Position numbers and translations under genes: made by a program
Notes under the pieces: model-generated
What the model was told of the DNA's origin: nothing
Seen by the model: the letters and a program-made list of their open reading frames with translations, nothing else
Databases searched by the model: none
Source of the DNA: Hypanus sabinus
Taxonomy: Eukaryota
Length of the DNA stretch: 64,000 bases
NCBI RefSeq assembly: GCF_030144855.1
Contig: NC_082712.1
Coordinates: forward strand, 13,392,001 to 13,456,000
Reading direction: 5' to 3'
Shown here: positions 6,390 through 63,224 of the stretch, piece after piece
Layout: the number at the start of each line of letters is the position of its first letter
Position numbering within the stretch: position 1 is the stretch's first letter

Positions 6390-8560
6390 ATATTCAGGCA
6401 CCTGTCCTTCCCTCAGCTCCCGGCGAGAGTGTTCCAGTGCTGAACGGGACTGAAGGAGCTTCGGCCACGTTACCCTGTGTGTTCACACGGCCTCAGCAGA
6501 GATTCACCGCACACACGGTGACGTGGATGAGGAAGGATCCCTATCGACACATCGTCACCTTCAGGCGTATTCGAAATGGACCGTGGGCAGCAGAAAACGG
6601 AGTGACTCGGTACGAGCTCGTCGGGGACCCAGAGCATGGAAACGCCTCGACCAGTATAAAGCAGCTGAGAGTGGAGGACAGTCACAGCTACCTGTGTCTG
6701 GCTGAGTTCAGGAAAAGCCAGCATTATTATTATTATTATTGGCCCACCAGAGACCACGTCAAACCCCCATATATCCATGTGTTCCAGAGTGAGATCCGGC
6801 TGCAGGTCAGATCAGGTAAGAAATCATTGACACATTCTGCAGGGCATGGGGAGGGTTTTAGGGGTGGGTGGGGGGAAGCCTGCTACCATTATCCTTTCTC
6901 TAATCAATCCCCACCCCCGTGTTTATCTGTCTGTCCCCGAGTGAGATCTGACTGTAGATCAGACCCGGAAAAGAACCCGTCACCACATTCAAGTTCAAGT
7001 TTAATTGTCAATCAGCCACACGTGCATACAGCAAAACAAAAGTGTTCCTCCAGGGACAAGGTGTAAAGCAGAGTAGCAACAGCACACAGTACACATTGTT
7101 ATGATGGCAGAAAAGCATACAGTCACAAAAAGACATAATATAGCCCAAGTTCCTGAGTGGTCTGGCTTGGAGCTGGATGGTAGATTGGATATTGTCCTGG
7201 TCCAGCTTGTCTCTCACTAAGTGAACACTGGGGGGCAGCACTGAGCAAAAGAGGAAGGCAGCACCAATGGGAGGGGCCTGTCCCCAACCCACGACGGACT
7301 CCAGCACGTCCACAGAGGCCTCTGCTCTCTCCCACACCATCTCGGCATCTTCTGCAGTGTTCAGGGATGGGTCGGAACCTCCAGCACCCATTGTATTCTG
7401 TGTCCAGACTCTGGGGATGAATGTTATATCGGCCACTCCCAGCCTCAGCTGGTGATGAGTTCCATTTCCCCACCACAACTCCATCTCAGACGGTCCCTCA
7501 CACAGGGTGGCCCCCAGACCTTCAACGGGCCCCCTGGTGGGGCCTTGCCTGAACTTGGGAGGAATGAGTGGAGTTCTAACGGAGGATCAGGAAGCTTCCC
7601 AGAGAAGATGCACACTCAGCGTTTCAGGAAGAGCTTCTTCCTTTCTGCCGTCGGATTTCTGAATGGACAATCAGAAAAGTGAGGACCAGCTCACTTTCTT
7701 CCCTATTTTTCCCTCTTTTTGTGCTACTTATTTAATTTAAAATTATACATGTAGGTATATATTTCTTATTGAAATTTACAGTTTTTTAATTAATATGTAT
7801 TGCAATGTATAACGGGGTGTCAGGGTGAAGATACGTCTTTACCAAAGGAGGTGTAAGACACTCCTTCCCTCCACTAGTCTTCACTTTACCCTTGGGCGAG
7901 GTGTAGCCCCTGCTTAGCCCCTGATCAGGGTCACGTGAATCCATGGGATCAGGTGGTGGATGGTTGTATGAGCAGCTGGTGCAGATCACAAATTCTGGTT
8001 ATGTGACCACTGACACCAGGCAGACAATCTCTGAAGAGTATTGATAATGGCTGGGCTCACCCATCCTGTACAGACACTGCTCAGAAGAAGGTGATGGAAA
8101 CCACTTTTGTAGAAAATTTGCCAAGAACAATCATGGTCATAAACAGGAAAATATCTGCCGTTGCTGGAAATCCAGAGCAACACACACAAGATACTGGAGG
8201 AGCTCAGCAGGTCAGGCAGCGTCTATGGGGAAAGGATCAAAGGTTCATTTTATTGTCAAAAGTTTGCATGTAGAATACAACTCTGATATTCATCTTCTCC
8301 AGATAACCATGATATCCAGATAAACCATGGGATTCATTACGTCAATACCCCCACATGAAAAGGAAAAAGAAAAATCTCGCAACCTCAACCCCCCACCTCC
8401 CTCCCTCGCACAAAAGCCAACAGATCACCCACATGGAAGATGATCGTCAGAAGATCGAAAGCCTCAAGCCCCCAACCCCCTCCCTCTCAAAAAATACAGT
8501 GCCGACAACACCAAACCCAACACCCTCTCCCCACACAGATCACCCACACAGAACAGTCAA
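6390..8560 (+). repeat. Segmental duplication block A, copy 1 (V exon plus downstream intron)
   Basis: Colinear with 49050-50705; the ORF track shows near-identical spurious translations (e.g. 7786..7989 vs 49929..50132). Confidence 0.9.
6417..6815 (+). CDS. Ig V-set domain exon of a Siglec-15/PILR-like single-V receptor (intact)
   Basis: Acceptor cctgtccttccctcAG, donor G/GTAAGA, 399 nt, phase 1-1, open. PGESVPVLNGTEGASATLPCVF...TVTWMRKDPY...RYELVGDPEHGNASTSIKQLRVEDSHSYLCLAEF...SEIRLQVRS has the B-strand Cys, C-strand Trp and DxxxYxC. Confidence 0.9.
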
Positions 8561-48199: not shown

Positions 48200-48960
48200 T
48201 GGAGAGTTATAGGGAAGTAGCCACCCCTCGATTGCAGGAAGTGAGTAGTTGGGTGACTGTCAGGAGAAATGGAAATATGAATAGGCAGTTGGTGCAGAGC
48301 ACCCCTGTGGCCATTCCCCTCAATAGTAAGTACACTGTTTTGGATTCTGTCATGGCACAGGACTTCCCAGGGAATGCCACGGAGACCGGGTTACTGGCAC
48401 TGAGCATAGGTCTGTGGTGCAGAAGGGAAAGAGGGCAGCGGTAGTGATAGGGGACTCATTAGTCAGGAGAACAGGTAGAACATTCTGTGGATGTGAACGG
48501 GATGCCTGAATGGTACGTTGTCTCCCAGGTGCCAGGGTCAGGGACATCTTAGATTGCGTCCGCAACATTTTGGAGGGGGAGGGAGAGCAGCCAGATGTCT
48601 TGGTACATATTGGTACCAATGGCATAGGAACAAAATGCAAAGTTGTCCTGAAAAGGGAATTTAGAGAGCGAGGTAGAAGCTGAGAAGCAGGACATCCAGG
48701 GTAATAATTTCTGGATTGCTTCCTGTGCCATGCACCAGTGAGGGTAGAAACATGATGTTTTGGCAAATTAATGTGTGGCTGAGAAGCGGGTGCAGGGGGC
48801 AGGACGAGGTTCTGAGGTCATTGGGATCTCCTCTGGGGGAGGCAGGACCTCCATAAAATTGATGAGTTCACCTGAACTCGAACGGGACCAATATTCTCAT
48901 GGGCAGGTTCGTTAGAGCCGTTGGGGAGGGTTTAAACTAACTTGATAGGGGAGTGGGAAC
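48200..48960 (+). mobile_element. CR1 ORF1 (esterase) fragment
   Basis: AVVIGDSLVR..VHIGTN; replaces the upstream intron of the V pseudoexon. Confidence 0.82.
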
Positions 48961-49049
48961 TGGATTAAAGGGACCCAGGAAAGGATGGATGGTAAAAAAG
49001 GAAAGATGGGAGTGGGACAAACAGTCCATAAGGAATGTATATTTATAAC

Positions 49050-50705
49050 TCACAGAAGATCGCCTGTCCTTCCCTCAACTCCCAATGAGAGTGTCTCTGT
49101 GATGACTGGAACCGAGGGAGCTTCGGCCACGTTACCCTGTGTGTACACACGGCCTCGGCAGAGCCTCACCGCACACACGGTGATGTGGATGAGGAAGGAT
49201 CCCTACCAATACATCGTCACCTTCAGGCACTGAGGAAATGGATCGTGGGCAGCAGAAAACGACTGACTCAGTACAAGCTCGTCAGGGACCCAGAGGGAGG
49301 AAACATCTTGATCAGGATAAAGCAGCTGAGTGAGGGAGACAGTCACAGCCACCTGCGTCTGGCTGAATTCGGGAAAGGGAAGCATGATTACTTATCCTAC
49401 GTCAAACCCCCATTTAACCATGTGATCCAGAGTGAGATCCGACTGCAGGTAAGAGACCATAGACACGTTCTGGAGGGGATGGGGTGGGTTTTGGGGGCAG
49501 CAAGTGAACCCTGTTACCATTATCCTTTCTCTAATCAACCCTCACTCCTGGGTTTATCTGTCTGTCCCCGAGTGAGATCTGACTGTAGATCAGACCCAGA
49601 AAAGAACCCGTCGCCACATTCAAGTTCAAGTTTAATTGTCAATCAGTGACACGTGCAGCCAACAAAACACAACAGCGTTCCTCCAGGGCCTTGCCTGAGC
49701 CTGGGAGGAATGAGTGGAGTTCTAATGGAGGATCAGGAAGCTTCCCAGAGAAGTTGCACACTCAGCGTTTCAGGAAGAGCTTCTTCCTTTCTGCCGTCAG
49801 ATTTCTGAATGGACAATCAGAAAAGTGAGGACCAGCTCACTTTGTTTCCTTTCTTCCCTCTTCTTGTGATATTTATTTAATTTAAAATTATACATGGTGG
49901 CATATATTTCTTTTGAAATTTACAGTTTTTAATTAATATGTATTGCAATGTATAACGGGGTGTCAGGGTGAAGATACGTCTTTACCAAAGGAGGTGTAAG
50001 ACACTCCTTCCCTCCACTAGTCTTCACTTTACCCTTGGGCGAGGTGTAGCCCCTGCTTCGCCCCTGATCAGGGTCACGTGAACCCATGGGATCAGGTGGC
50101 GGATGGTTGTATGAGCAGCTGGTGCAGATCACAAATTCTGGTTATGCGACCACTGACACCAGGCAGACAATCTCTGAAGAGTATTGACAATGGCTGGGCT
50201 CACCCATCCTGTACAGACTCTGCTCAGAAGAAGGTGATGGAAACCACTTTTGTAGAAAAATTGCCAAGAACAATCATGGTCATAAACAGGAGAAATTCTG
50301 CCATTGCTGGAAATCCAGAGCAACACACACAAAATACTGGAGGAACTCAGCAGGTCGGGCAGCGTCTATGGGGAAAGGATCAAAGGTTCATTTTATTGTC
50401 CAAGTTTGCACGTGGAATACAACTCTGATATTCACTTTCTCCAGATAACCCTGATATCCAGAAATACCATGGGATTCATTACTAGAATAGATATCAATAC
50501 CCCCACATGAAAAGGAAATGGAAGAATCTCGCAAACCACAAACCCCACTCCCCGCCCCCCACCTCCCTCCCTCGCACAAAAGCCAACCGATCGCCCACCT
50601 GGAAGACGATTGTCAGAAGATCAAAAGCCCCAAGACCCCAACCCCCTCCCTCTCAAAAAATACAGTGCTGACAGCACCAAACCCAACACCCTCTCCCCAA
50701 ACAGA
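49050..50705 (+). repeat. Segmental duplication block A, copy 2
   Basis: Colinear with 6390-8560; lacks the roughly 7070-7540 segment of copy 1. Confidence 0.9.
49079..49448 (+). pseudogene. Paralogous Ig V pseudoexon
   Basis: GASATLPCVYTRPRQSLTAHTVMWMRKDPYQYIVTFRH*. Acceptor AG>AA, TGA at 49231, 1-nt frameshift near 49262, F-strand Cys TGT>CGT, 10-nt deletion at the donor. Confidence 0.92.
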
Positions 50706-50709
50706 TTTA

Positions 50710-51749: not shown

Positions 51750-52045
51750 TGCTGGATTTGTTCTGATGGGAGATTGGAGGGACTGGGTGTGTTCTGAGTG
51801 TAGATCGCAGACACTATTTTTTCTGAGGAAAGATTGGTCGGACTGGGTCTGTTCTGATGGGAGATTAGAGAGTCTGGGTTTATTCTGAGGTGAGATCAGA
51901 GATAATTTCTGTTTTTTATGGTAGATTAGAGAGATTGGATTTGTTCTGAGTGGAGATTAGAGAGACAGGCTTTGTTCTGAGGGGAGATTCAAGAGACTGG
52001 CTTTGTTCTGTTGAGTCATTGGACAGACTGGGCTTGTCCTGAGGA
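51750..52045 (-). repeat. Degenerate ~31-bp minisatellite, inverted relative of 56532-57215
   Basis: Units such as ggagattggacagactgggtttgttctga are the reverse complement of tcagaccaaacccagtctgtccgatctcc. Confidence 0.8.
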
Positions 52046-52949
52046 AAGTGTGTTGGAAACATAGGAAGGTAGAAAATCCACAGTGCATTACAGGCCATTC
52101 AGCCCACAATGTTGTGCTGACCATGTAAACTACTTTAGGCACTGCCTAGAAATTCCCTTCCACATAGCGCTCTCTTTTTCTGAAGAAGAAGTGAAGTGAC
52201 ATTGGAGAATTAGGGTCTACTCTGCGGACTGTTACACAAAGCACCACTTGTAATGATGAGCAACTTCACAACTGAAAAGAATGTGGGTTCTCCAACGAAC
52301 TACGTATGTGCACCCTACTGGAATCCCTGACCCTCCATGAATAGTGAATGAAGAGGAAAGCGATTATCTGGGAAATGAGTCCACACTGGCTAGGTGTTCC
52401 TCATGGTCTCGATCTCCACATGTCCTCCTTATCCCTGATGGTTGTTCTCTGACTGCGGGAGAGTTATGGCTCCTACGTATTTGGAGCTCCTGAATCTTAT
52501 ACTGTTCCTCATCAATTGAACTGGTGGATCTCCATCCCTTTGACTCAAGGTCACCTGACCTACCTGGGTCACCTTCTCACTGCTCATTATACAGGGCAAC
52601 AACCCACATTGTTTCCTGGTCCTACCCACCCCAGACTTGTGTATTTGAGTCTTTCAACTCTGACTGGTCCAAACCCATTAAACTAGGTGACCCAGACAGA
52701 GTCTAACGAGATTACAGATTGATTCTTTGGTAGGTCTGGCATCTTACGTAATAAGTAGCTCCTCCTCCGAGAATGGGCTCATGTTTAGCAGGTCCTTCGG
52801 GTCCTGAAGTTTCTCATGTCCACTTTCAGTTGCTCTGATTAGATTATCCAAGAGCATGAATATAGTTCAGAATCCACAAAATGGGGGGTGAGGGAACAAA
52901 GACAACTGGTCTGTCTCCTTCCCCTGACCTTGATTCATCAAATCCACTA

Positions 52950-55135
52950 ATTGTAGACTGTAGATTCTTCTGGCCAACATCTTCCTCCTCTTCATCCAAA
53001 GATATTTATCCTGAGATCATTATCCTCCTCTCATTCAGATGACTGCCCATAGGACTGCCTTGTAGGTGTGTAACACTTACATTCTATAAATAATATTAAC
53101 ATTTACTAACTAACTTCACCCACTTTATACCTACAATCGTCTCTGCTTTTTCATGAAAACCTTATCCTCAATTTATTTTCCATTATTGCGTCTTCTCAGT
53201 TGATATACCTCAGGGGGCATAAAATTAGTATTGTAGCGGTATGTGATACTATTCTTACCCATGGATGTATTTGAACATTTGACCTCCAATTCCAAAACTT
53301 ACTCCAAAAGCCTGGTGACTCAATATTTCATTTGCTTCTCCAGCGTGTGTTTTAATTACTTTAGTGTGTTTAGTCCATCGATGGATTATCTCTGTTTCCT
53401 CTGCCATAACATGTGTCCAGTCTGCAGTCAAGTGAGGAACTGGTGGCAACTCAGTAACAACACAGTCCCACAGATATTGATCTGTATCTGTGCATCGAGT
53501 CTTGAAGTTCTCCCCCTGGCTGAGGCAAAGTTCATCCTCCAATGGCCAGGTCTAAAGTCACGTTCCCTCTCATGATATTGTGACTTTCCAAAAGGGCATT
53601 GTTTCCATCCCTTCGTATAACTTGTGGGCCCTGTTGCTATGTAATACGTCTGTCCCACCAATGCATATTGTAAGAAAGCCTAGTTATTCACAGGCAAAAT
53701 GGACAATGAATAATTTTCACAAGTACAGGTTTTAAGCTTCTGCTTTGTCATTCCTTCTGGACAAGATCAGTTGTCTCCCTCTTGATGGCATCTTGATAAA
53801 TCGCACTCTTTCCCAGTACCATTCATAACAGTAGCATATATCAGTGGGTTATTTAAGGATATCTATGTATTCTGATGATACTTTCCAACATTGTGAACAT
53901 CTTTTCAAAATGTAGGTTGAATTATTTCCATATGGGGAAATTATGGAATACCACTCTGACATAAAAAAAACCTTCCTTTACCATCATCACAGGTATCGAG
54001 TTCTCTGTTGGTTACCGTAAGGCTTCTGATATGATACAATGGCACCCTTTCTCCAACCCATTTTTTTAGATGCTCATCTGAGACCCAGTTTGCTCCTTGA
54101 TGTGCATCAAGTTGCAACAGATTAGTGCCAGTCATGGTGAGCAACCAACTAGCATACGTAGCACGGATCTCAGTTTTCTGCATTTCCTTAGATGTGAGGT
54201 CTATGTGGTCAGTAATCGGATTTGTTGTATCATGAAAGGGCTACAGAAATTTACCAGTAACAGGGTTACCCGGATGCACCTCAACCAATCTGTTTGTATT
54301 AGTTTGTACCCGATCTCTGTAATTCTCTCCAGTAATATCCTTTATTTTCTGCTGGAGGTACTGTGTCTGGTTTTCTAATTCTGCTATATCGAGGCTGTTG
54401 ACTGTTGCTGCCCCTGATGTATAATCTACTCCCACTAATTCCAGTAGTCCTCTTTTCCTACTGTTTTTGATGGGCCTAACCTCGCTCTGCTTAGTTGTCT
54501 CTCATAAGGGTGAGCAAATAATTGTTTTGTTGTAGGTGAGCACTATTCAGGCACCATTATTTCAGTTAGATTAAAAATTATCTGCGAGTGCTCGTACCCT
54601 GGTACCAAAGTGTCAAATTCCCCTGTATCTCCTAACACTAACCCTGTCCCATTTGTGTTACGCTGCGTCTCACTACATTTAGGCTCTGGTATAGTTTCCA
54701 TCACTTGTGGGTATGGAGTAGTGATTTTTCTAATAGTTTTGAAAACCTGGAAAGGGCCCGGCCACTGACAAAAACTGTAAATATTTAAGGATCATCTCCG
54801 CTCCTACTTCCAGTTTAAATCTTAAATTATTTTGTACATATTTTCTACTTGTTTTTCTAGACAAACCAGTCCAGACTCCCAGTTGTCTTTGGATTCAAGG
54901 CATCTATTTTTCCTCACCCAATTTTGTTTTGGGATAGGAGAGACAAACACTGGCATTTCTTCCTTTCCCTTTGATTTTTTGGCAGAACTCCCCTGTGTCT
55001 CAGGATGTGGAAAATAAAAATCACCTCCTTGAGTGGGCAGGTTCCCATCTTCTTGGAACATTTGTTCCATCCTCGAGTCCCCCAAATCAGAACCACCATG
55101 TACATCAATTGTTATGTGCTGATGGTGATAACATT
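52950..55135 (-). pseudogene. env: Decayed ERV env encoding a class I fusion protein, paramyxovirus-F-like
   Basis: Candidate signal segment MYMVVLIWG at about 55100; NSRKR/GLLELVGVDYTSGAATVNSLDIAELENQTQYLQQKIKDI (RKR at 54451-54459); NPLIYATVMNGTGKECDLSRCHQEGDN*SCP..TCTC; many stops. Confidence 0.65.
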
Positions 55136-55139
55136 CCTG

Positions 55140-55580
55140 TTTCTCCCCCACCAATTTCAGCTGGTTGATATGGTACCACCCACTTTTATCGTGAGAAGTC
55201 AGCACTGTGCACTGAAGGGTTTGCTTTGTCTATAATTTCATAGGGCCCTGCGAACCTTGGATTTAACAATGAGTGGGTTGGTGTTTCTAATCATCACTCT
55301 TTGTCCTGGGTTAAATTCCATGATACTGACTTTTGAGTTAGTCAGCTTTACTCTGTTGCTTCTTCTTTCCTGTTTGGTAGGCTGCCACATAACTGGCCTC
55401 TTTCACTGCCTCTACTAATTGCTGTACCACTTTTCTGAAACATACCCATTGATATCAAGTTCTGACAAATCTAATCCGAACAACTCCTTCTTTCATATCC
55501 CTTCCGGTCATGAATTTATACGGGATATAACCCGTTGAAGACACCACTGTATTCCTTATTGTCATCAAGGCACAAGGAAA
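55140..55580 (-). pseudogene. pol: ERV integrase C-terminal half with GPY/F module
   Basis: FPCALMTIRNTVVSSTGYIPYKFMTGRDM; FNPGQRVMIR..PRFAGPYEII..GWYHINQLK. Confidence 0.85.
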
Positions 55581-55639
55581 ATCTAATTCTAACTCCTCTA
55601 ATCCTCTAATGACCCTTCTGCTCAACCCTTGCGGAGTCC

Positions 55640-55795
55640 TCTGTTAAATCCATAACCTTAATCTGTTTTCCCTTCTGCCTTCCAGACTCCCAAGTTGTAG
55701 CTGCCATTTCTGCCCAATAAAAGCACCTTGCTTCGCCAATTCATCAGCCTTTCTATTTCCCTCAGGAGATGATTTAGAGTGAGACTTCACCTTTA
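55640..55795 (-). pseudogene. pol: ERV RNase H C-terminus
   Basis: IKVKSHSKSSPEGNRKADELAKQGA. Confidence 0.8.
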
Positions 55796-55919
55796 TGACT
55801 CCATATTATTTTCACTTTGCAACTTCAAATATATATTGTAATAAATCAGCAGATGGGAGGGGCCTGCATTAGCTGAAACAAACCCCCTGTTGTGTTCAAT
55901 TTCAGTTTCTCTTGTTTTC

Positions 55920-56270
55920 CATCTCAACCCCATTCTCCTCCCTTCTCCCCACAACCTTTAACTCCTTGACTAAACAGGAACCTATGAAGTTCTGCTTTAA
56001 ATATGGTCAATGACTTGGCCTCCACAGCTGCCTGTGGAAATGAATTCCACAGATTCACGACTCCCAGGCTAAAGAAATTCCTCCTCATCTCTGTTCTAAA
56101 TTGCTGTCCTTCTATACTGAGGCTGTGCCCTCAGTTCCAAGACTTCCCCAAAATTGGAAACATCCTCTCCAGGTCTCTCAGTATTGTATGGGTTTCAGTG
56201 AGATCCGCTGCACCCCCCAACATTCTTCTAAACTTCAGTGAGTAGAAGACCAGAGTTATCAAACGCCATA
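55920..56270 (-). mobile_element. CR1 3' fragment
   Basis: Reverse complement of FSLGVVNLWNSFPQAAVEAKSL. Confidence 0.75.
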
Positions 56271-56531
56271 GACAGCACCCTGTCTGGGTGCATTCAGCTT
56301 GATGTGGTCCATCTCTGTCTGTGACACAAGAAGCTATTTATTTTGATGAATGTGTGACAGATAAAGCCAACCTGTAACTTTATCTTGCACAAGTCACTGA
56401 TAATTCTGTGTTGTTTTTCCTACCGCAATGAAAGAGGAGATATTTCCAGCTACTTCCTCACTTACCACATCCCTAAAAGAAAAGTTCAGTCTTTTCAGCT
56501 GTGAAATTATTTGGCATTATTTTTATCAACA

Positions 56532-57215
56532 CTCAGACCAAACACAGTCTGTCCTATCTCCCCTCAGACCAAACCCAGTCTGTCCAATCTCCCTCAGACC
56601 AAACCCAGTCTGTCCGATCTCCCCTCAGACCAAACCCAGTCTGTCCGATCTCCCCTCAGACCAAACCCAGTCTGTCCGATCTCCCCTCAGACCAAACCCG
56701 GTCAGTCCGATCTCCCCTCAGACCAAACCCAGTCTGTCCGATCTCCCCTCAGACCAAACCCAGTCTGTCCGATCTCCCCTCAGACCAAACCCAGTCTGTC
56801 CGATCTCCCCTCAGACCAAACCCAGTCTGTCCGATCTCCCTCAGACCAAACCCAGTCTGTCCGATCTCCCCCAGACCAAACCCAGTCTGTCCGATCTCCC
56901 CTCAGACCAAACCCAGTCTGTCCGATCTCCCTCAGACCAAACCCAGTCTGTCCGATCTCCCTCAGACCAAACCCAGTCTGTCTGATCTCCCCTCAGATCA
57001 AACCCAGTCTGTCCGATCTCCCTCAGACCAAAACCAGTCTGTCCAATCTCCCCTCAGACCAAACCCAGTCTGTCCGATCTTCACTCAGAACAAACCCAGT
57101 CTCTGTGATCTCTCCACAGTCTCTCATCAGTACAAACTCACTCTCTAAAAACACCTCAATCACTCCAGAAAACAAAGCCAGTCTCTGTCTGATCTCACCT
57201 CAGAGCAAACCCAGT
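56532..57215 (+). repeat. 30/31-bp minisatellite, about 20 units
   Basis: Unit tcagaccaaacccagtctgtccgatctcccc; homogeneous core at about 56560-57060 with degenerate edges. Confidence 0.95.
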
Positions 57216-57224
57216 CCCAATGGG

Positions 57225-58825
57225 GGAGGGCGGGATGTGAATATGGAGGTAGTGATTGGCATGATTTAGCAGATGAAGCTACTAGATATGGTTATGATAA
57301 TTATAAAATACCATTTCCCGAGGAATTCCCACCGACTCCCTACCATAGGGGGTCAGTGCTACCGTCTGCACGATTGGCACCCCTCATTACTCTCAGAGAG
57401 GAGGGAGCATGACAGCAAATCAAACTCAGACTGTAACATACACCACACTGTTCGGTGTACAGCAACTTAAAGATATTGCTGAGGATATCAGGACACGTGT
57501 GCTCAGAGACGATACTCAAGAGCTTTTCCAAGCAACTAGCCATCAGAGAGAACTTCAAGGAAAGGAGATTGATTATAATGTGTCCCATCCAAATATGCAC
57601 TCGGCTTTGCCGGATCTACAGTGAGATGGTGGGGACTGAAGAACGCAATATTGACTGCTATGGGTGTTAACAGAAGGGACCCAGTCAACGCACTAAAAAC
57701 AATTTACCGGAGGAGAGGTGAACATCCCACTGCATTTGCATCCCATTTATAGACTGTGTTCCAAGGAGTGAAGGAACAGCAGTAGAGTGCGGCCATTTAG
57801 ACGGTTGTGGATACTGGCGTCTCACTATACCGTTGAATCTAAAAAGGCACTGGAAATGTTTGATCCTTCTGAACCGACACATACTGAGGCACGGTCACTG
57901 AGGAAAATGTGTAGAGTGAGGGAAAAGGAGATACAGAGACCATCTAAACTCCCTAATGGGAAGGTAATGCCTGTTAAAGTCAGGCACCTGAATGGAGAAT
58001 TAATGGTAGGGGACCCACCCCGAGGGCCTCACTGCCACACCATCAAGGGGCAAGGAAGGGCAGAGGAAATGGAACAGGGCCAGGAACAGGGAGAACTGAA
58101 GGTGGAGTAATTAAATGCTATAACTGTGGCCAAGAGGGACAGATGAAGAGAGAATGTCCAAACCTGAGACAGGAAAGAGCAGAACAATGCAGTTTGTCTT
58201 TGGAGGGGCCAGAAAGATGGAGCCCACAGAATAACATGGTGGAGACACCACCATCCAGGGAATTGTACCCTGAGTCTGAGTGATGGTGTCAGGCCTCACC
58301 AACATGGGTGTGACACAAGGTGGAATGAAACCGGAAGACCTTGAGTGGTTGCTAGGGTCGGAGGCTGCCCTGTTACCTTTTTATGGGACACTGGATGATC
58401 CCGAACCACCGTCAACACCACTAATGTAAATAACGTAAATTGGGAGATACAAGGTAGTGTTATCCTCATTGAATTGTCAGACATCCACAAGTGGGACGTG
58501 TGAGTGTGCCATTGGAATTAAGGATAGGAGACATAGCATCGAAACATTCAACAGTGCTGGTGGAATTACCCAGGGAGAGGGAACATATACTGGGGACTGA
58601 TTACCTGGCCAAAGTGGGACTTTGTTTTGATCCAGTTAATTGTATGATTCCCATAATTGTATTGCTCCATAATTCCCCATCTATATTTCACCAGCGCTTA
58701 GAGAAAGGTTTAAATGATTTTCAAATCCTGAGTGCTTGATACAGTACATAGAAGATCTATTCCTGCAGATTGGAATTAAGCAGGAATATTATCAGCTATT
58801 GACAGAACTGCTGCAATTATTAGCA
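57225..58825 (+). pseudogene. gag-pol: Inverted duplicate of ERV gag-pro-(deleted)-RT
   Basis: Capsid-like LKNAILTAMG..DPVNALKTIYRRRGEHPTAFASHL; knuckle CYNCGQEGQMKREC (58116-58157); VTFLWDTG (58387); ILGTDYL; HNSPSIFHQRL..IQYIEDL. Confidence 0.88.
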
Positions 58826-59278: not shown

Positions 59279-59407
59279 CCTAATAATTGCAGCAGTTCTG
59301 TCAATAGCTGATAAAGTTCCTGCTTAGTTCACTCTGCAGGAGTAGATCACATATGTATTGAATCAAACACTTGGGTTTTGAAAACCATTTAAACCTTTCC
59401 CCTAAGC

Positions 59408-62094
59408 CAGGGGTCGGCAACCCGCGGCTCCAGACCCACATGTGGCTCTTTGATCTCTGTGCTGCGGCTCCTTGTGGCTTTGGAAAATAAATGATGAGTA
59501 TTTAATTAAAATGTATTTTATGTTAGTTTGTTAGTTTTTGAAATGTAATTCTAAATTTGGAGATTATGGTGATCTTGTACAATCTAAATAAAATGTGTTT
59601 TTTGTCGCTATTAATATACGTCACCACTACCAATGCCTGACACCTGCCAGTGCGCGATTTCTTTAATTTTTCGATCCAAGTTAGGCGAACTATGGAGAAT
59701 TCTAAAAAAAGAAAAGTGACTGAAGAAAACAGAACTTTTAATGATACGTGGGCAGATTCATTTGCTTTCAGTGCTGACGAGACTGGTTTACCGGTATGCT
59801 TAATATGCAATGAGAAACTAGCAACCAGCAAAAAGTCAAAAGTCGCAAGACATTTCCAGCAAACACACAGGCTTTGCTCAAAAATATCCAGATGGAGATG
59901 AGAGAAAAAAAACAGTTTCGGAACTGATGCGGAAGGTTGAGCTGAGCAAAAATCATTTCAAGAAGTGGATGAAGTCTGGAAAATCAACTACATATGCTAG
60001 TTTTGTTGCCGCTCGGTAAATAGTCAGGCACGGGAAGCAGTTTACAGATGGTGAATATATAAAATAATCTTTCATTAAGATTTCAGAATATCTATTCACG
60101 GACTTTAAAAATAAGAGTGAAATTGTGCAGAAAATCAGGAATATGCCCCTCTCTGCAAAGACTGTCAAAGACAGAACCATAAAAATGGCAGAAGACATCA
60201 CAAGACAGCAAATTAAAGACATCAATTCAGCTGTGGCCTACTCGATTGCCTGTGACGAGTCTAAAGACAAAGGTGATATTAAACAAATAGCGCTGTTCTG
60301 CCGGTATGTAAACTCTGCCTGGCCACAGGAAGAAATGATTGAGTTGATGCCTCTAAAAGGCCAAACACGGGGGGAGGACATCTATGAGGCTGTCTTGAAT
60401 TGTTTAAGAGCCAAAGTACTAACGACCACCCACTTGGTGTCAGTAGCTACTGATGGGGCACCAAGTATGACAGGAGCGTACAAGGGATTTGTGGCTTTAC
60501 TGCAGAAGTCGCTGGGCAGAAAGCTAAAGCTGCTGACTTTTCACTGCATCTTGCACCAAGAGGCTTTGTGCGCTCAAACATTTCCTCCGGAATGCACAGG
60601 TAATGGATGTTGTCATTCAGATTGTCAATAAAATACTGGCAAAAAGTTTAAATCACCGTCAATTCAGTTTGTTACTGGACGAGCTGGAAAGCGCATATTC
60701 TGATCTCCTGCTGCACAACAAAGTCCGGTGGCTGTCAAGAGGGGAGGTGCTGAAACACTTTGTCGCGTGTCTGGAAGAAGTGAAAACTTTCCTGGGCAGC
60801 AAAGGGCTCACCTTTCCTGAGCTGGAACAGCCAGAGTGGCTGGAAAAGCTACACTTCATGGTAGACATGACAGCGCACCTGAACACGCTGAACACAGCTC
60901 TTCAGGGGAAAGGACGCACAGCCCTGCACATGTTGGAGGATGTTTTGGCATTCGAGTGCAAGTTGACAGTGCTTGCCAGAGATTCACAGAAAGGCACATT
61001 GTCTCACTTCCCCAATTTGAGAGAGTTCAAACAAGCTCACGACATGATAAATTCAGAGTATTGACATTCTGCAATCATTGCAATGCAACATCATTTGGGA
61101 AACGCTTCTGTGAGTTCAGAGAAGAAAAAAACACATTATCCTTCCCGGTCACTCTCCTAAGCATCGATCCATCCCTACTGAATACGACTGCATTGGCAGG
61201 TGTGAGTCAACCTGATCTTGAGATGGAACTGGCCAACATACCCGACAAAGACATATGGGTGTCCAAGTTTAGACGCTTGACAGCAGACCTTGAAGATGTT
61301 GCCCGTCAGAAGGCCGCTCTTGCTCAGAATCACAAATGGAGTGATATTGAAAACTTCCCCAAACCGGACAAACTTGTGTTGGAAACATGGAATGCTATCC
61401 CTGACATTTATGTAAACATTAAAATGTATGCGCTTGCAGTCCTGTCGATCTTTGGATCCACATATGTATGTGAGCAGGTGTTCTCCTACATGAACTTCAT
61501 TAAAAACAAACATCGCGCACGCCTCACAGATGACAGCTTGCGATCCTGTGTAAAGATGAAGGTGACGTCATACAGCCCTGATGTGCAGATGCTGTGCGCT
61601 GAGGTCCAGGAGCAGAAATCCCATTAACCAAGAATGATAAGTATTTTAATTGCCTATTATTTTACGTATATTCAATTTTTTTCATTTTTCAGTGAAATAG
61701 TACTTTTATTTTCAGGTTGACAGCTGGCTGACATTATTTTTGGTTTGCTGCTGGCGGACAATTTAAGTTCGGCGTTTTTCATAAATACAAGAAGGACTCA
61801 AATAGATTGAGTATTTTACTTAAAAGTAACCTGCAACCCAACGTCTTTTTTTCGGAGTTCAAAATGTTTTTGTTGCATGCAGAAATGTAATTTTGTTTTC
61901 TCTGCAGGAGTTCATCGATGACATAAATGCAACACATTATAGTTTGTTTATACATAGCATAAAGGCAAAAAAACCGTTGTATGCAGTGTTATTTCATTTT
62001 AAATGTCAAACGGGTTTTGTGGCTCCCAGTGTTTTCTTTTCTGTGGGAAACAGGTCCAAATGGCTCTTTCAGTGGTAAAGGTTGCCGGCCCCTG
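59408..62094 (+). mobile_element. hAT DNA transposon (SPIN/GTF2IRD2-like) with intact ends
   Basis: TIRs CAGGGGTCGGCAACC / GGTTGCCGGCCCCTG; 8-bp TSD CCCTAAGC at 59400-59407 and 62095-62102. Confidence 0.96.
59692..61627 (+). pseudogene. hAT transposase, frameshifted
   Basis: BED-like CLIC..H; SIACDESKD; ATDGAPSM; FHCILHQEAL; VRWLSRG; FGSTYVCEQVFS dimerisation motif; split across at least 4 frames. Confidence 0.92.
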
Positions 62095-63224
62095 CCCTAA
62101 GCGCTGGTGAAATATAGATGGGGAATTATGGAACCCCTGTGGTAGGGTAGTCCACGTACACTGCTGTCTCTGAAGGGCAAGTGCAAACTTGACCATGACC
62201 AAAACCCATTATTTATGTTTAAAACTGAACCATTGTGCTCTTTCATTCTGTTTGAACACTATTTCCGGGTTAGTTGCTACAGTTGGGGCTGTTAACCGAG
62301 TCACTTTATTTACCTCTCGATAATCAACCTCCAACTACCATCTGGTTCCCTCACGGGCAATATGGGTGAGTTATTTGTGGAGGTTACTGGCCTCAGTACC
62401 CCTTGTTGCACCAAACTCTGTATTCCCTTGCCTACATCTTCCTTTGCTTTTTTGGAAACTCATATTGGTTCGGTGCTTTGGGGTCTGGACCTTGGATGCA
62501 CACTCTGCCGGCTATCTTTCCACAGTCATGCTTGTGTCTTGCAAATGCCCCCGAGTTCTGTGCAATAATTTACTGCACCATCTGATCATTGCTCATCTCC
62601 CCCGGTTTTATCCACATTTCGTCCATTGTGCAGATTCTATCCAATATTCTCCTGCCGGGATCTGTATGTGGTGTATGTTATTCATGACAGTTGGCATCTG
62701 CTAAATCATACAATTAACTGGATCAAAACAAAGCCCCACTTTGGCCAAGTAATCAGTCCCCAGTATGTGTTCCCGCTCCCTGGGTAATTCCACCAGCACT
62801 GTTGAATGTTTCGATGCTATGTCTCCTATCCTTAATTCCAAAGTCACACTCACACGTCCCACTTGTGGATGTCTGAGAATCCAATGAGGATAACTCTACC
62901 TTGTATCTCCCAATTTACGTTATTTACATTAGTGGTGTTGACGGTGGTTCGGGATCCTCCAGTGTCCCATAAAAAGGTAACAGGGTGGCCTCCGACCCTA
63001 CCAATCACTGGAGGTCTTCTGGCTTCATCCCACCTTGCGTCACACCCATGTTGGTGAGGCCTGACACCATCATTCTGGCTCAGGGTACAATTCCCTGGAC
63101 GGTGGTGTCTCTACCATGTTATTTTGTGGGCTCCATCTTTCTGGCCCCTCCAAGAGCAAACTGCATTGCTCTGCTCTTTCTCATCTCAGGTTTGGACACT
63201 CTCTCTTCCACAGTTTCAGAGAGA

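Follow-up and report, generated by a model that had tools for sequence, protein, structure and literature searches.

A stretch of 64,000 nucleotides from the stingray Hypanus sabinus (NC_082712.1, positions 13,392,001 to 13,456,000; hereafter the window) carries a decayed gene that a preliminary description, made from the letters alone, had read as an env remnant resembling the fusion protein F of paramyxoviruses rather than an env of the gamma or beta type. The locus raises two questions: which kind of fusogen the gene once encoded, and which kind of element carried it. The features of the locus are collected in Table 1.

Table 1. Features of the element and its env remnant, in window coordinates
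Feature	Positions	Strand	Basis
3' LTR, 750 nt, ends TGTT...AACA	52230..52979	-	ends read from copies
Polypurine tract adjoining the LTR	52980..52993	-	seen in sequence
Broken env, predicted F-type class I fusogen, 5' part missing	53131..54775	-	tblastn with P0001, profile, 3' end against L034
Putative heptad repeat 2 and start of membrane anchor, shifted frames	53220..53491	-	44-54% to P0001 residues 606-696
Cys-rich beta core of F1-like subunit	53590..53850	-	alignment of C-x(8)-C ... C-x(7)-C with HPIV3 F
CTC (the CxC)	53727-53719	-	read in sequence
C-x(8)-C, first Cys	53805	-	read in sequence
P-x-x-YAT motif	53847-53830	-	read in sequence
Basic cleavage site, fusion peptide, start of heptad repeat 1	54334..54465	-	motif positions; model helices
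Heptad run	54378-54334	-	read in sequence
GAATVNSLDIAEL	54414-54376	-	read in sequence
Hydrophobic peptide GLLELVGV, right after the basic site	54450-54427	-	read in sequence
Basic site NSRKR	54465-54451	-	read in sequence
F2-like part ahead of the cleavage site	54465..54677	-	41% to P0001 residues 208-278
Deletion junction, env start lost	54771..54801	.	570-600 extra nt each in L027, L035, L039
Integrase C-terminal part, GPY/F motif and tail	54969..55580	-	49% to L034; SH3_Tf2-1 E 0.038
C-terminal end of RNase H	55637..55888	-	55% to L051; Pfam RNase_H E 0.17
Inverted duplicate of the element front: 31-nt array, gag with zinc knuckle, protease, RT piece	56242..58822	+
RT fragment, catalytic-motif region, beyond the transposon insertion	59281..59399	-	77% nt to L039; 55% aa to L051
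hAT-like DNA transposon in RT, 8-nt target duplication	59408..62094	.	terminal inverted repeats, duplicated 8-mer
Gag end, protease, N-terminal RT of the same provirus	62103..63207	-	79% nt to L039; also L038

A tblastn comparison with P0001, an intact relative encoded on contig C28, recovers the remnant as five colinear pieces in three frames at 40–54% identity. The main frame is interrupted by six stops (54243, 53943, 53907, 53865, 53769 and 53682), and the gene as a whole has at least four changes of frame. Against a family profile built without the window this main frame scores 183.5 bits, the highest of the shuffled controls that received a score (121 of 200) being −0.4 bits; as far as sequence comparison goes, the similarity to the family exceeds chance. 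The window's own env translation matches no Pfam env family and no PDB sequence (0 at E 10). Judging from P0001, a deletion of about 570–600 nt probably took the signal peptide and the N-terminal domain, and this copy of env is a non-functional fossil.

All the env motifs named in the preliminary description were found in the window, on the minus strand. The interval that it had assigned to them, 52950..55135, does contain the gene but is longer than the remnant itself, since it includes the polypurine tract and some 30 nt of LTR on one side and the tail of integrase on the other. Its statement that no gamma-type CX6CC motif is present was borne out: the motif is absent from all four full-length relatives tested, and five gamma-type envs with CX6CC align with the family profile at probabilities of 0.1–11%. 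The CxC, which had been taken as a trait of paramyxoviral F, fared otherwise. It is missing at that place in the three closer copies aligned (L027, L034 and P0001), which carry there two Cys seven residues apart, so that the CxC of the window is, by this comparison, a product of decay and not the paramyxoviral CxC. The non-canonical furin site with Ser at P4 is correctly described for the window (S-R-K-R) and is not a trait of the family. A canonical R-x-K/R-R site was read in three of five dispersed copies and in four of five C28 copies, and because it is common in other copies, the odd P4 belongs to the duplicate set of which the window is one member.

The surroundings of the gene are those of a provirus. 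The 3' LTR is 75–78% identical to the 5' LTRs of copies L040 and L045 and to the 3' LTRs of L035 and L045. No match to the integrase core lies within the window, which shows a gap of about 940 nt in this region relative to L035. The inverted duplicate of the element front matches zf-CCHC (E 5e-4) and Asp_protease_2 (E 0.009), and is 85–90% identical to L038 and 79% to L039; the segment of the provirus proper that ends the window matches RVT_1 (E 0.0018) and Asp_protease_2 (E 0.013), and its gag runs past the window end. A sister copy, L039/L040, preserves the complete order LTR-gag-PR-RT-tether-RH-IN-env. The RNase H is dual, with RT_RNaseH_2 at E 0.001 in L039 and RNase_H at E 6e-20 in L034. 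The 5' LTR of the window copy was not found in the window or the next 10 kb; one 5' LTR junction was seen in L040. Among the copies none was seen with both an intact RT and an intact env. The gene belongs to an LTR element and is a retroviral env; it does not represent a gene captured from the Mononegavirales.

Several further structures accompany the provirus. The transposon in RT, which we label hAT-like from its anatomy, has a broken transposase and a 93.6% identical copy in L025. Two arrays of a 31-nt unit lie in opposite orientation at 51752-52044 and 56532-57102; the latter, and a copy of it in L038, stand immediately ahead of gag, a position in which no such array was seen in the dispersed copies L040, L045, L035 and L047. 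The window also contains an internal duplication, 6401-8540 and 49063-50706, with a spacing of 42 kb and pieces that are 86–98% identical. Positions 48949-49233, in the second duplicate copy, presumably read as an Ig-V-like segment, a label that we give from motif spacing.

The env frame has at least 135 matches in the 4.04 Gb genome, with 124 of 674 candidates scored; the figure is a minimum and does not give the number of copies. At least 14 near-identical copies of the dead provirus, the window included, lie about 0.1 Mb or more apart at 11.58–13.45 Mb on contig C25. The 200 nt past the LTR are 95.5–100% identical in nine loci besides the window's own, and because the flank beyond the LTR is shared, the C25 copies are segmental duplicates of one insertion; by sequence identity the series is a large, young segmental or tandem duplication. 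The element itself is old. Within one dispersed copy the 5' and 3' LTRs are separated by a K2P distance of 0.187 over 645 sites. With the mammalian rate adopted in PMC7947760 this corresponds to about 42 My, and with the shark rate assumed in PMC4422223 to an age ten times greater. Because the two rates differ tenfold, nothing more precise than an age of at least tens of millions of years can safely be given.

The intact relative P0001 has a naturally open frame of 733 residues that starts with a signal peptide and an N-terminal domain of about 190 residues, continues with the cleavage site and fusion peptide, and ends about 25 residues after a transmembrane segment (TM) at approximately 690–708. 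A HMMER search gave 36 relatives; 18 of the 24 looked up come from sharks or rays and two from frogs. P0001 and 27 of the 36 were combined into the family profile (28 natural homologues), while the remaining nine, P0033 included, were omitted because they are short, fused or the most distant. Against the PDB, the best four of eight rows are 'Fusion glycoprotein F0', HPIV3 F being best at a modest E of 7.6e-4, and the C-x(8)-C and C-x(7)-C of the family align with those of HPIV3 F. A Pfam scan of 34 homologues yielded one match to Fusion_gly PF00523 (P0033, 25.6 bits against a cut-off of 29.8) and one to Baculo_F (E 0.001). The comparison with Pfam Fusion_gly that the preliminary description had proposed returned no match for the window or for P0001. 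The latter, taken alone, matches no Pfam family and no PDB sequence (0 at E 10), and a word-index search with it retrieved its own record alone among 7136 candidates. The nearest language-model neighbours of P0001 residues 205–715 are F clusters carrying PF00523 (0.95, 0.94 and 0.93), and the next are gypsy-env and Baculo_F clusters (0.92).

The AlphaFold model of P0001 is of middling quality (pLDDT 59.4, pTM 0.38), and the N-terminal domain is unreliable in it, residues 16–216 lying mostly below a pLDDT of 50. The model has long helices at 278–396 and shows heptad repeat 1 after the fusion peptide, a beta-rich Cys core, and heptad repeat 2 before one TM, features that belong to the P0001 model and not to the letters of the window. 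In a Foldseek search of the PDB all 42 rows listed are F proteins of paramyxoviruses or pneumoviruses, the best at E 1.5e-8, with low TM-scores of 0.14–0.25 by query length. VIA-align superimposes the model on hPIV3 F (1ZTM) with Z 9.0 (292 aligned, rmsd 6.7, model range 217–664) and on foamy Env 8RM0 with Z 6.9 (203 aligned, rmsd 5.5); in its whole-model count, one chain alone stands at Z 8. The dominance of paramyxovirus and pneumovirus F in the PDB ranking is presumably biased, as few other F-type structures are deposited there. Among predicted viral structures, lispivirus-type glycoproteins lead (from E 6.7e-12), followed by WEHV-1 Env (1.5e-9), granulovirus F (2e-9) and WDSV Env (4.4e-8); the first paramyxovirus F stands at rank 17 (7.6e-8), and feline foamy Env reaches 2.2e-4. 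Lispiviruses belong to the Mononegavirales.

Profile, language model and predicted structure concur in assigning the family to the F-type class I fusogens, and its proper label is the F-type superfamily as described in PMC12583693 and PMC11468914, not paramyxovirus F. The preliminary reading of the gene as F-like and neither gamma- nor beta-type holds at the level of the family on all three lines of evidence, while paramyxoviruses are not singled out by them. A better match to baculovirus F had been named there as an outcome that would speak against a paramyxovirus F; the place of granulovirus F above the first paramyxovirus F among the predicted viral structures goes part of the way towards it. 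The fold of paramyxovirus and pneumovirus F (PF00523) is colinear with the predicted one over P0001 217–664 and the Cys pattern aligns, whereas identity is 8–14% and the family has no equivalent of the downstream CxC, carries the extra N-terminal domain, and resides in a retroviral context. The F-type proteins of baculoviruses, errantiviruses and lispiviruses (PMC12583693, 10.1101/2023.10.26.564294) are of the same fold class and score at or above paramyxovirus F among predicted structures; here, by contrast, the carrier is a vertebrate retrovirus, and the preprint (10.1101/2023.10.26.564294), in its accessible part, sets vertebrate ERVs aside. Foamy viruses provide another retroviral Env with an F core, called 'class Ib' in the accessible text of PMC11468914. 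The foamy Env described there starts with a leader anchored in the membrane and carries its receptor-binding domain inserted between the subunits, whereas in the ray protein the extra domain lies before F2 and after the signal peptide, and the ray RT is not foamy in trees. Since F lacks such a domain and retroviruses possess no further glycoprotein, the task of the N-terminal domain was most likely attachment.

By this anatomy an intact virus would have had the organization LTR-gag-PR-RT-tether-RNase H-IN-env-PPT-LTR. Its Env would begin with the signal peptide and the domain of about 190 residues, probably an attachment head, followed by the F2-like part. By analogy to F, furin would cut the basic site and free the hydrophobic fusion peptide, and heptad repeats 1 and 2 would fold back around the beta-rich, disulfide-linked core, drawing the virus and cell membranes together. 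The analysis establishes the anatomy of the element, its family, the fold match of an intact relative and the placement of RT; cleavage, trimer formation, fusion and the part played by the N-terminal domain are inferred from that anatomy and by analogy with paramyxovirus F and foamy Env. In the window copy the start of env is gone, as is the integrase core; it was struck by the DNA transposon and an inversion and afterwards multiplied as a passenger of a segmental duplication.

The C28 locus was analyzed further. The intact env, annotated as LOC132401028 (733/745 aa, L021:5207-7408), lies beside a broken pol in a cluster at 117.66–118.40 Mb that holds at least seven copies with 95–98% nucleotide identity (also L024, L029-L033). 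In the six paralogues fetched, env is broken in every one, and pol is broken beside all. Hemitrygon akajei has a protein of the same length with 96% identity and no gaps. The pol remnants beside the intact relative differ by about 2% between the organisms, about as little as env, and because they differ equally little, the substitution rate alone is no sign of selection. An open frame in two genera, with pol next to it and the paralogues decayed, nevertheless suggests retention by the host. From the sequences at hand, the chance that this is a co-opted stingray env is about even. A literature search of incomplete coverage found no report of such a gene. The locus is a more useful lead than the window copy: should it prove to be a host gene, a retroviral fusogen with a fold different from that of the syncytins would have been co-opted.

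No RNA record is listed for the intact relative. Two runs from two further organisms, each of a different study, are RNA by our guess and contain contigs over the P0001 frame, which in each run have about 64 more letters past an acceptor-like site just before the start codon, a possible trace of splicing. Long, open members of the family also occur elsewhere: P0009 from the bamboo shark Chiloscyllium (GCC29952.1, 739 aa, named 'Ig-like domain-containing' by its source), P0007 from the houndshark Mustelus (673 aa) and P0013 from the frog Pelodytes (723 aa). Pieces of the ERV family lie inside host gene models in P0012 (Pristis TRP channel), P0028 (Heterodontus fbxo15) and P0039 (Mustelus transporter), and are either exonised fragments or annotation errors.

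To place the carrier, RT was compared with reference loci, among them snakehead retrovirus (SnRV; L061, the RT letters of which match the SnRV row in the supplement of PMC7947760; SnRV length 10,688 nt according to PMC12193657), three loci with the Loki RT motif and 16 foamy-type loci. The nearest named virus is SnRV, with 55.6% identity and 205 bits over the ray RT core, against 37–39% and 127–134 bits for the three Loki-type loci and at most 41% for 16 other viral loci; foamy RT scores 140 bits, MLV 108 and Ty3 83. A single-protein RT scan of viral contigs gave nothing, and neither did a search of viral contigs for the Loki motif; the env alignment, for its part, offers no stretch of sufficient conservation to scan with. 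The final RT trees comprise 26 of 33 rows and 264 columns; a broken gypsy row, a caulimovirus-like row, three foamy rows, one gamma row and P0062 were left out, and the trees are without ERV-L/ERV-S, fish foamy, alpha/beta/lenti and Odin rows. The labels eps62, eps63, gam and FV were assigned by similarity, eps62 grouping with gamma-type rows.

In these trees the three Loki loci are united at 100/100 as the sister group of all retroviruses. The ray RT and its relatives, those from frog included, fall on the retrovirus side (92/97 under LG+G4, 95/94 under C20). An AU test rejects the grouping of ray with Loki (p 0.008 and 0.011). Monophyly of ray, relatives and SnRV is recovered in neither tree and is not rejected (AU p 0.133); the C20 tree unites SnRV with the foamy and gamma/epsilon rows (95/90), so that the ray group becomes a basal grade. 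Downstream of RT the scores turn towards Loki. The tether scores 147–153 bits against Loki versus 103 against SnRV in one comparison and 100–106 versus 62 in another, the integrase 174–177 versus 100 bits in the first and 172–176 versus 102 in the second, and P0001 matches Loki env at E 3e-7 versus 0.003 for SnRV Env, while the family profile matches Loki env at 98%. The trees do not follow these scores throughout: the tether tree excludes Loki at 96/90, and the integrase tree is mostly unresolved, Loki joining a frog relative at 92/86 (one frog relative is named NYNRIN-like). We conclude that the carrier is very probably a true retrovirus of the class III or snakehead-retrovirus-like grade, not a lokiretrovirus, with an F-type class I Env. 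The SnRV clade, or clade Huo, is treated in PMC12193657 and PMC8922424, and SnRV-related ERVs are known from the elephant shark, a chimaera, as shark lineage I (PMC4422223).

A lokiretrovirus, which would be the first in a cartilaginous fish, was our first lead and was dropped after the RT comparison, the trees and the AU tests. The Loki Env, in the accessible text of PMC7947760, is F-like and has an RXKR basic site, a fusion peptide, a coiled coil and a TM, the element has a dual RNase H, and env, tether and integrase all score nearer to Loki than to SnRV, with the integrase and tether most alike. The dual RNase H, however, is common to all retroviruses and hence shared with Loki; lokiretroviruses are defined by RT monophyly, and the Loki clade excludes the ray RT, which has the retroviral LPQGF motif and not the CPFGY of Loki. 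The ray env is 22–25% identical to that of Loki and has the extra N-terminal domain. This makes a lokiretroviral origin improbable. In the accessible part of PMC7947760, the table shows no starred genome among six chondrichthyans, the meaning of the star being inferred by us. The shift of the best score along pol, from SnRV in RT to Loki from the tether on, could also reflect a recombinant of an SnRV-like RT with a Loki 3' half (RNase H, integrase and env), or a later swap of env. Domain shuffling is described as common in retroviruses in PMC7947760, and a class III pol with a gamma-type env is reported in 10.1101/2021.11.23.469661, in the text accessible of each. We nevertheless consider recombination unlikely, if less so than a lokiretrovirus, in view of the tether tree and of an env identity to Loki so low that any swap would be very old; shared ancestral states together with a fast-evolving SnRV account for the scores equally well.

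Two further origins concern env more directly. Recent capture of a paramyxovirus-like F gene of the Mononegavirales by a retroelement of this lineage would agree with the best PDB matches and with the lispivirus glycoproteins at the head of the predicted viral structures. It is nonetheless very improbable, given the presumed bias of the PDB ranking, the low identity to any F, and the provenance of the sequence relatives recovered, which are proteins from sharks, rays, frogs and Loki elements. A Ty3/gypsy element of the errantivirus kind, with an env of the baculovirus-F type, could likewise appeal to the granulovirus F match, to the Gypsy-env and Baculo_F clusters, and to the single homologue with a Baculo_F match. 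For pol this reading is refuted: RT is nearer to foamy virus and MLV than to Ty3, RNase H is dual, and the RT trees part the element from gypsy at 100/98. The likeness in env is that of a shared superfamily, and as an account of the whole element a gypsy origin deserves hardly any credence.

The Env of SnRV itself bears on how far the F type extends among retroviruses. Its alignment with the family is weak and begins at the cleavage site (L061:7700-9200), with probabilities of 91% and 68%; in controls for the 68% run, 40 shuffles stayed at or below 0.4% and the reversed sequence at 4%. With HMMER, SnRV Env scored 1.5 bits, not above the reversed control. We regard the link as suggestive. Together with the predicted structures of WEHV-1 and WDSV, it indicates that the Envs of SnRV and the epsilonretroviruses may be F-type too. 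SnRV and the ray element differ in that tether and integrase are far apart and the cytoplasmic tail of Env has 136 residues in SnRV versus about 25 in P0001, the long tail being a trait of SnRV itself and not necessarily of its clade.

F-type Envs on Loki elements, foamy viruses and errantiviruses were already known, and their occurrence on this lineage is apparently new: a literature search, incomplete in coverage, found no report joining an F-like Env with SnRV-like, class III or shark ERVs. A survey of anamniote Envs (10.1101/2021.11.23.469661) screened, in its accessible text, for Envs of the gamma and beta types. As set out in the accessible part of PMC7947760, four scenarios for the origin of retroviral Env were left open because an F-like Env was then known in lokiretroviruses alone; foamy Env was later shown to have an F core (PMC11468914). 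The lineage described here, which is widespread in sharks and rays and by its RT lies among the true retroviruses near their base, is the third with an F-type Env and favors an F-type ancestor. On a tentative reading, to which we give somewhat less than an even chance, the shark, ray and frog lineage is the earliest-branching grade of retroviruses outside Loki, retains an ancestral Loki-like tether and integrase together with the F-type Env, and preserves the original retroviral fusogen, the gamma and beta types having come later, with one member perhaps a host gene in stingrays. The reading draws on the weak SnRV Env match and on the structural matches to WEHV-1, WDSV and foamy Env. If it is true, the gamma- and beta-type Envs would be later replacements, as in scenario 3 of PMC7947760. 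The scenarios for the origin of Env become testable with natural intact proteins already present in databases, and a member of the family retained by live-bearing stingrays as a gene of their own would be the F-type counterpart of the syncytins.
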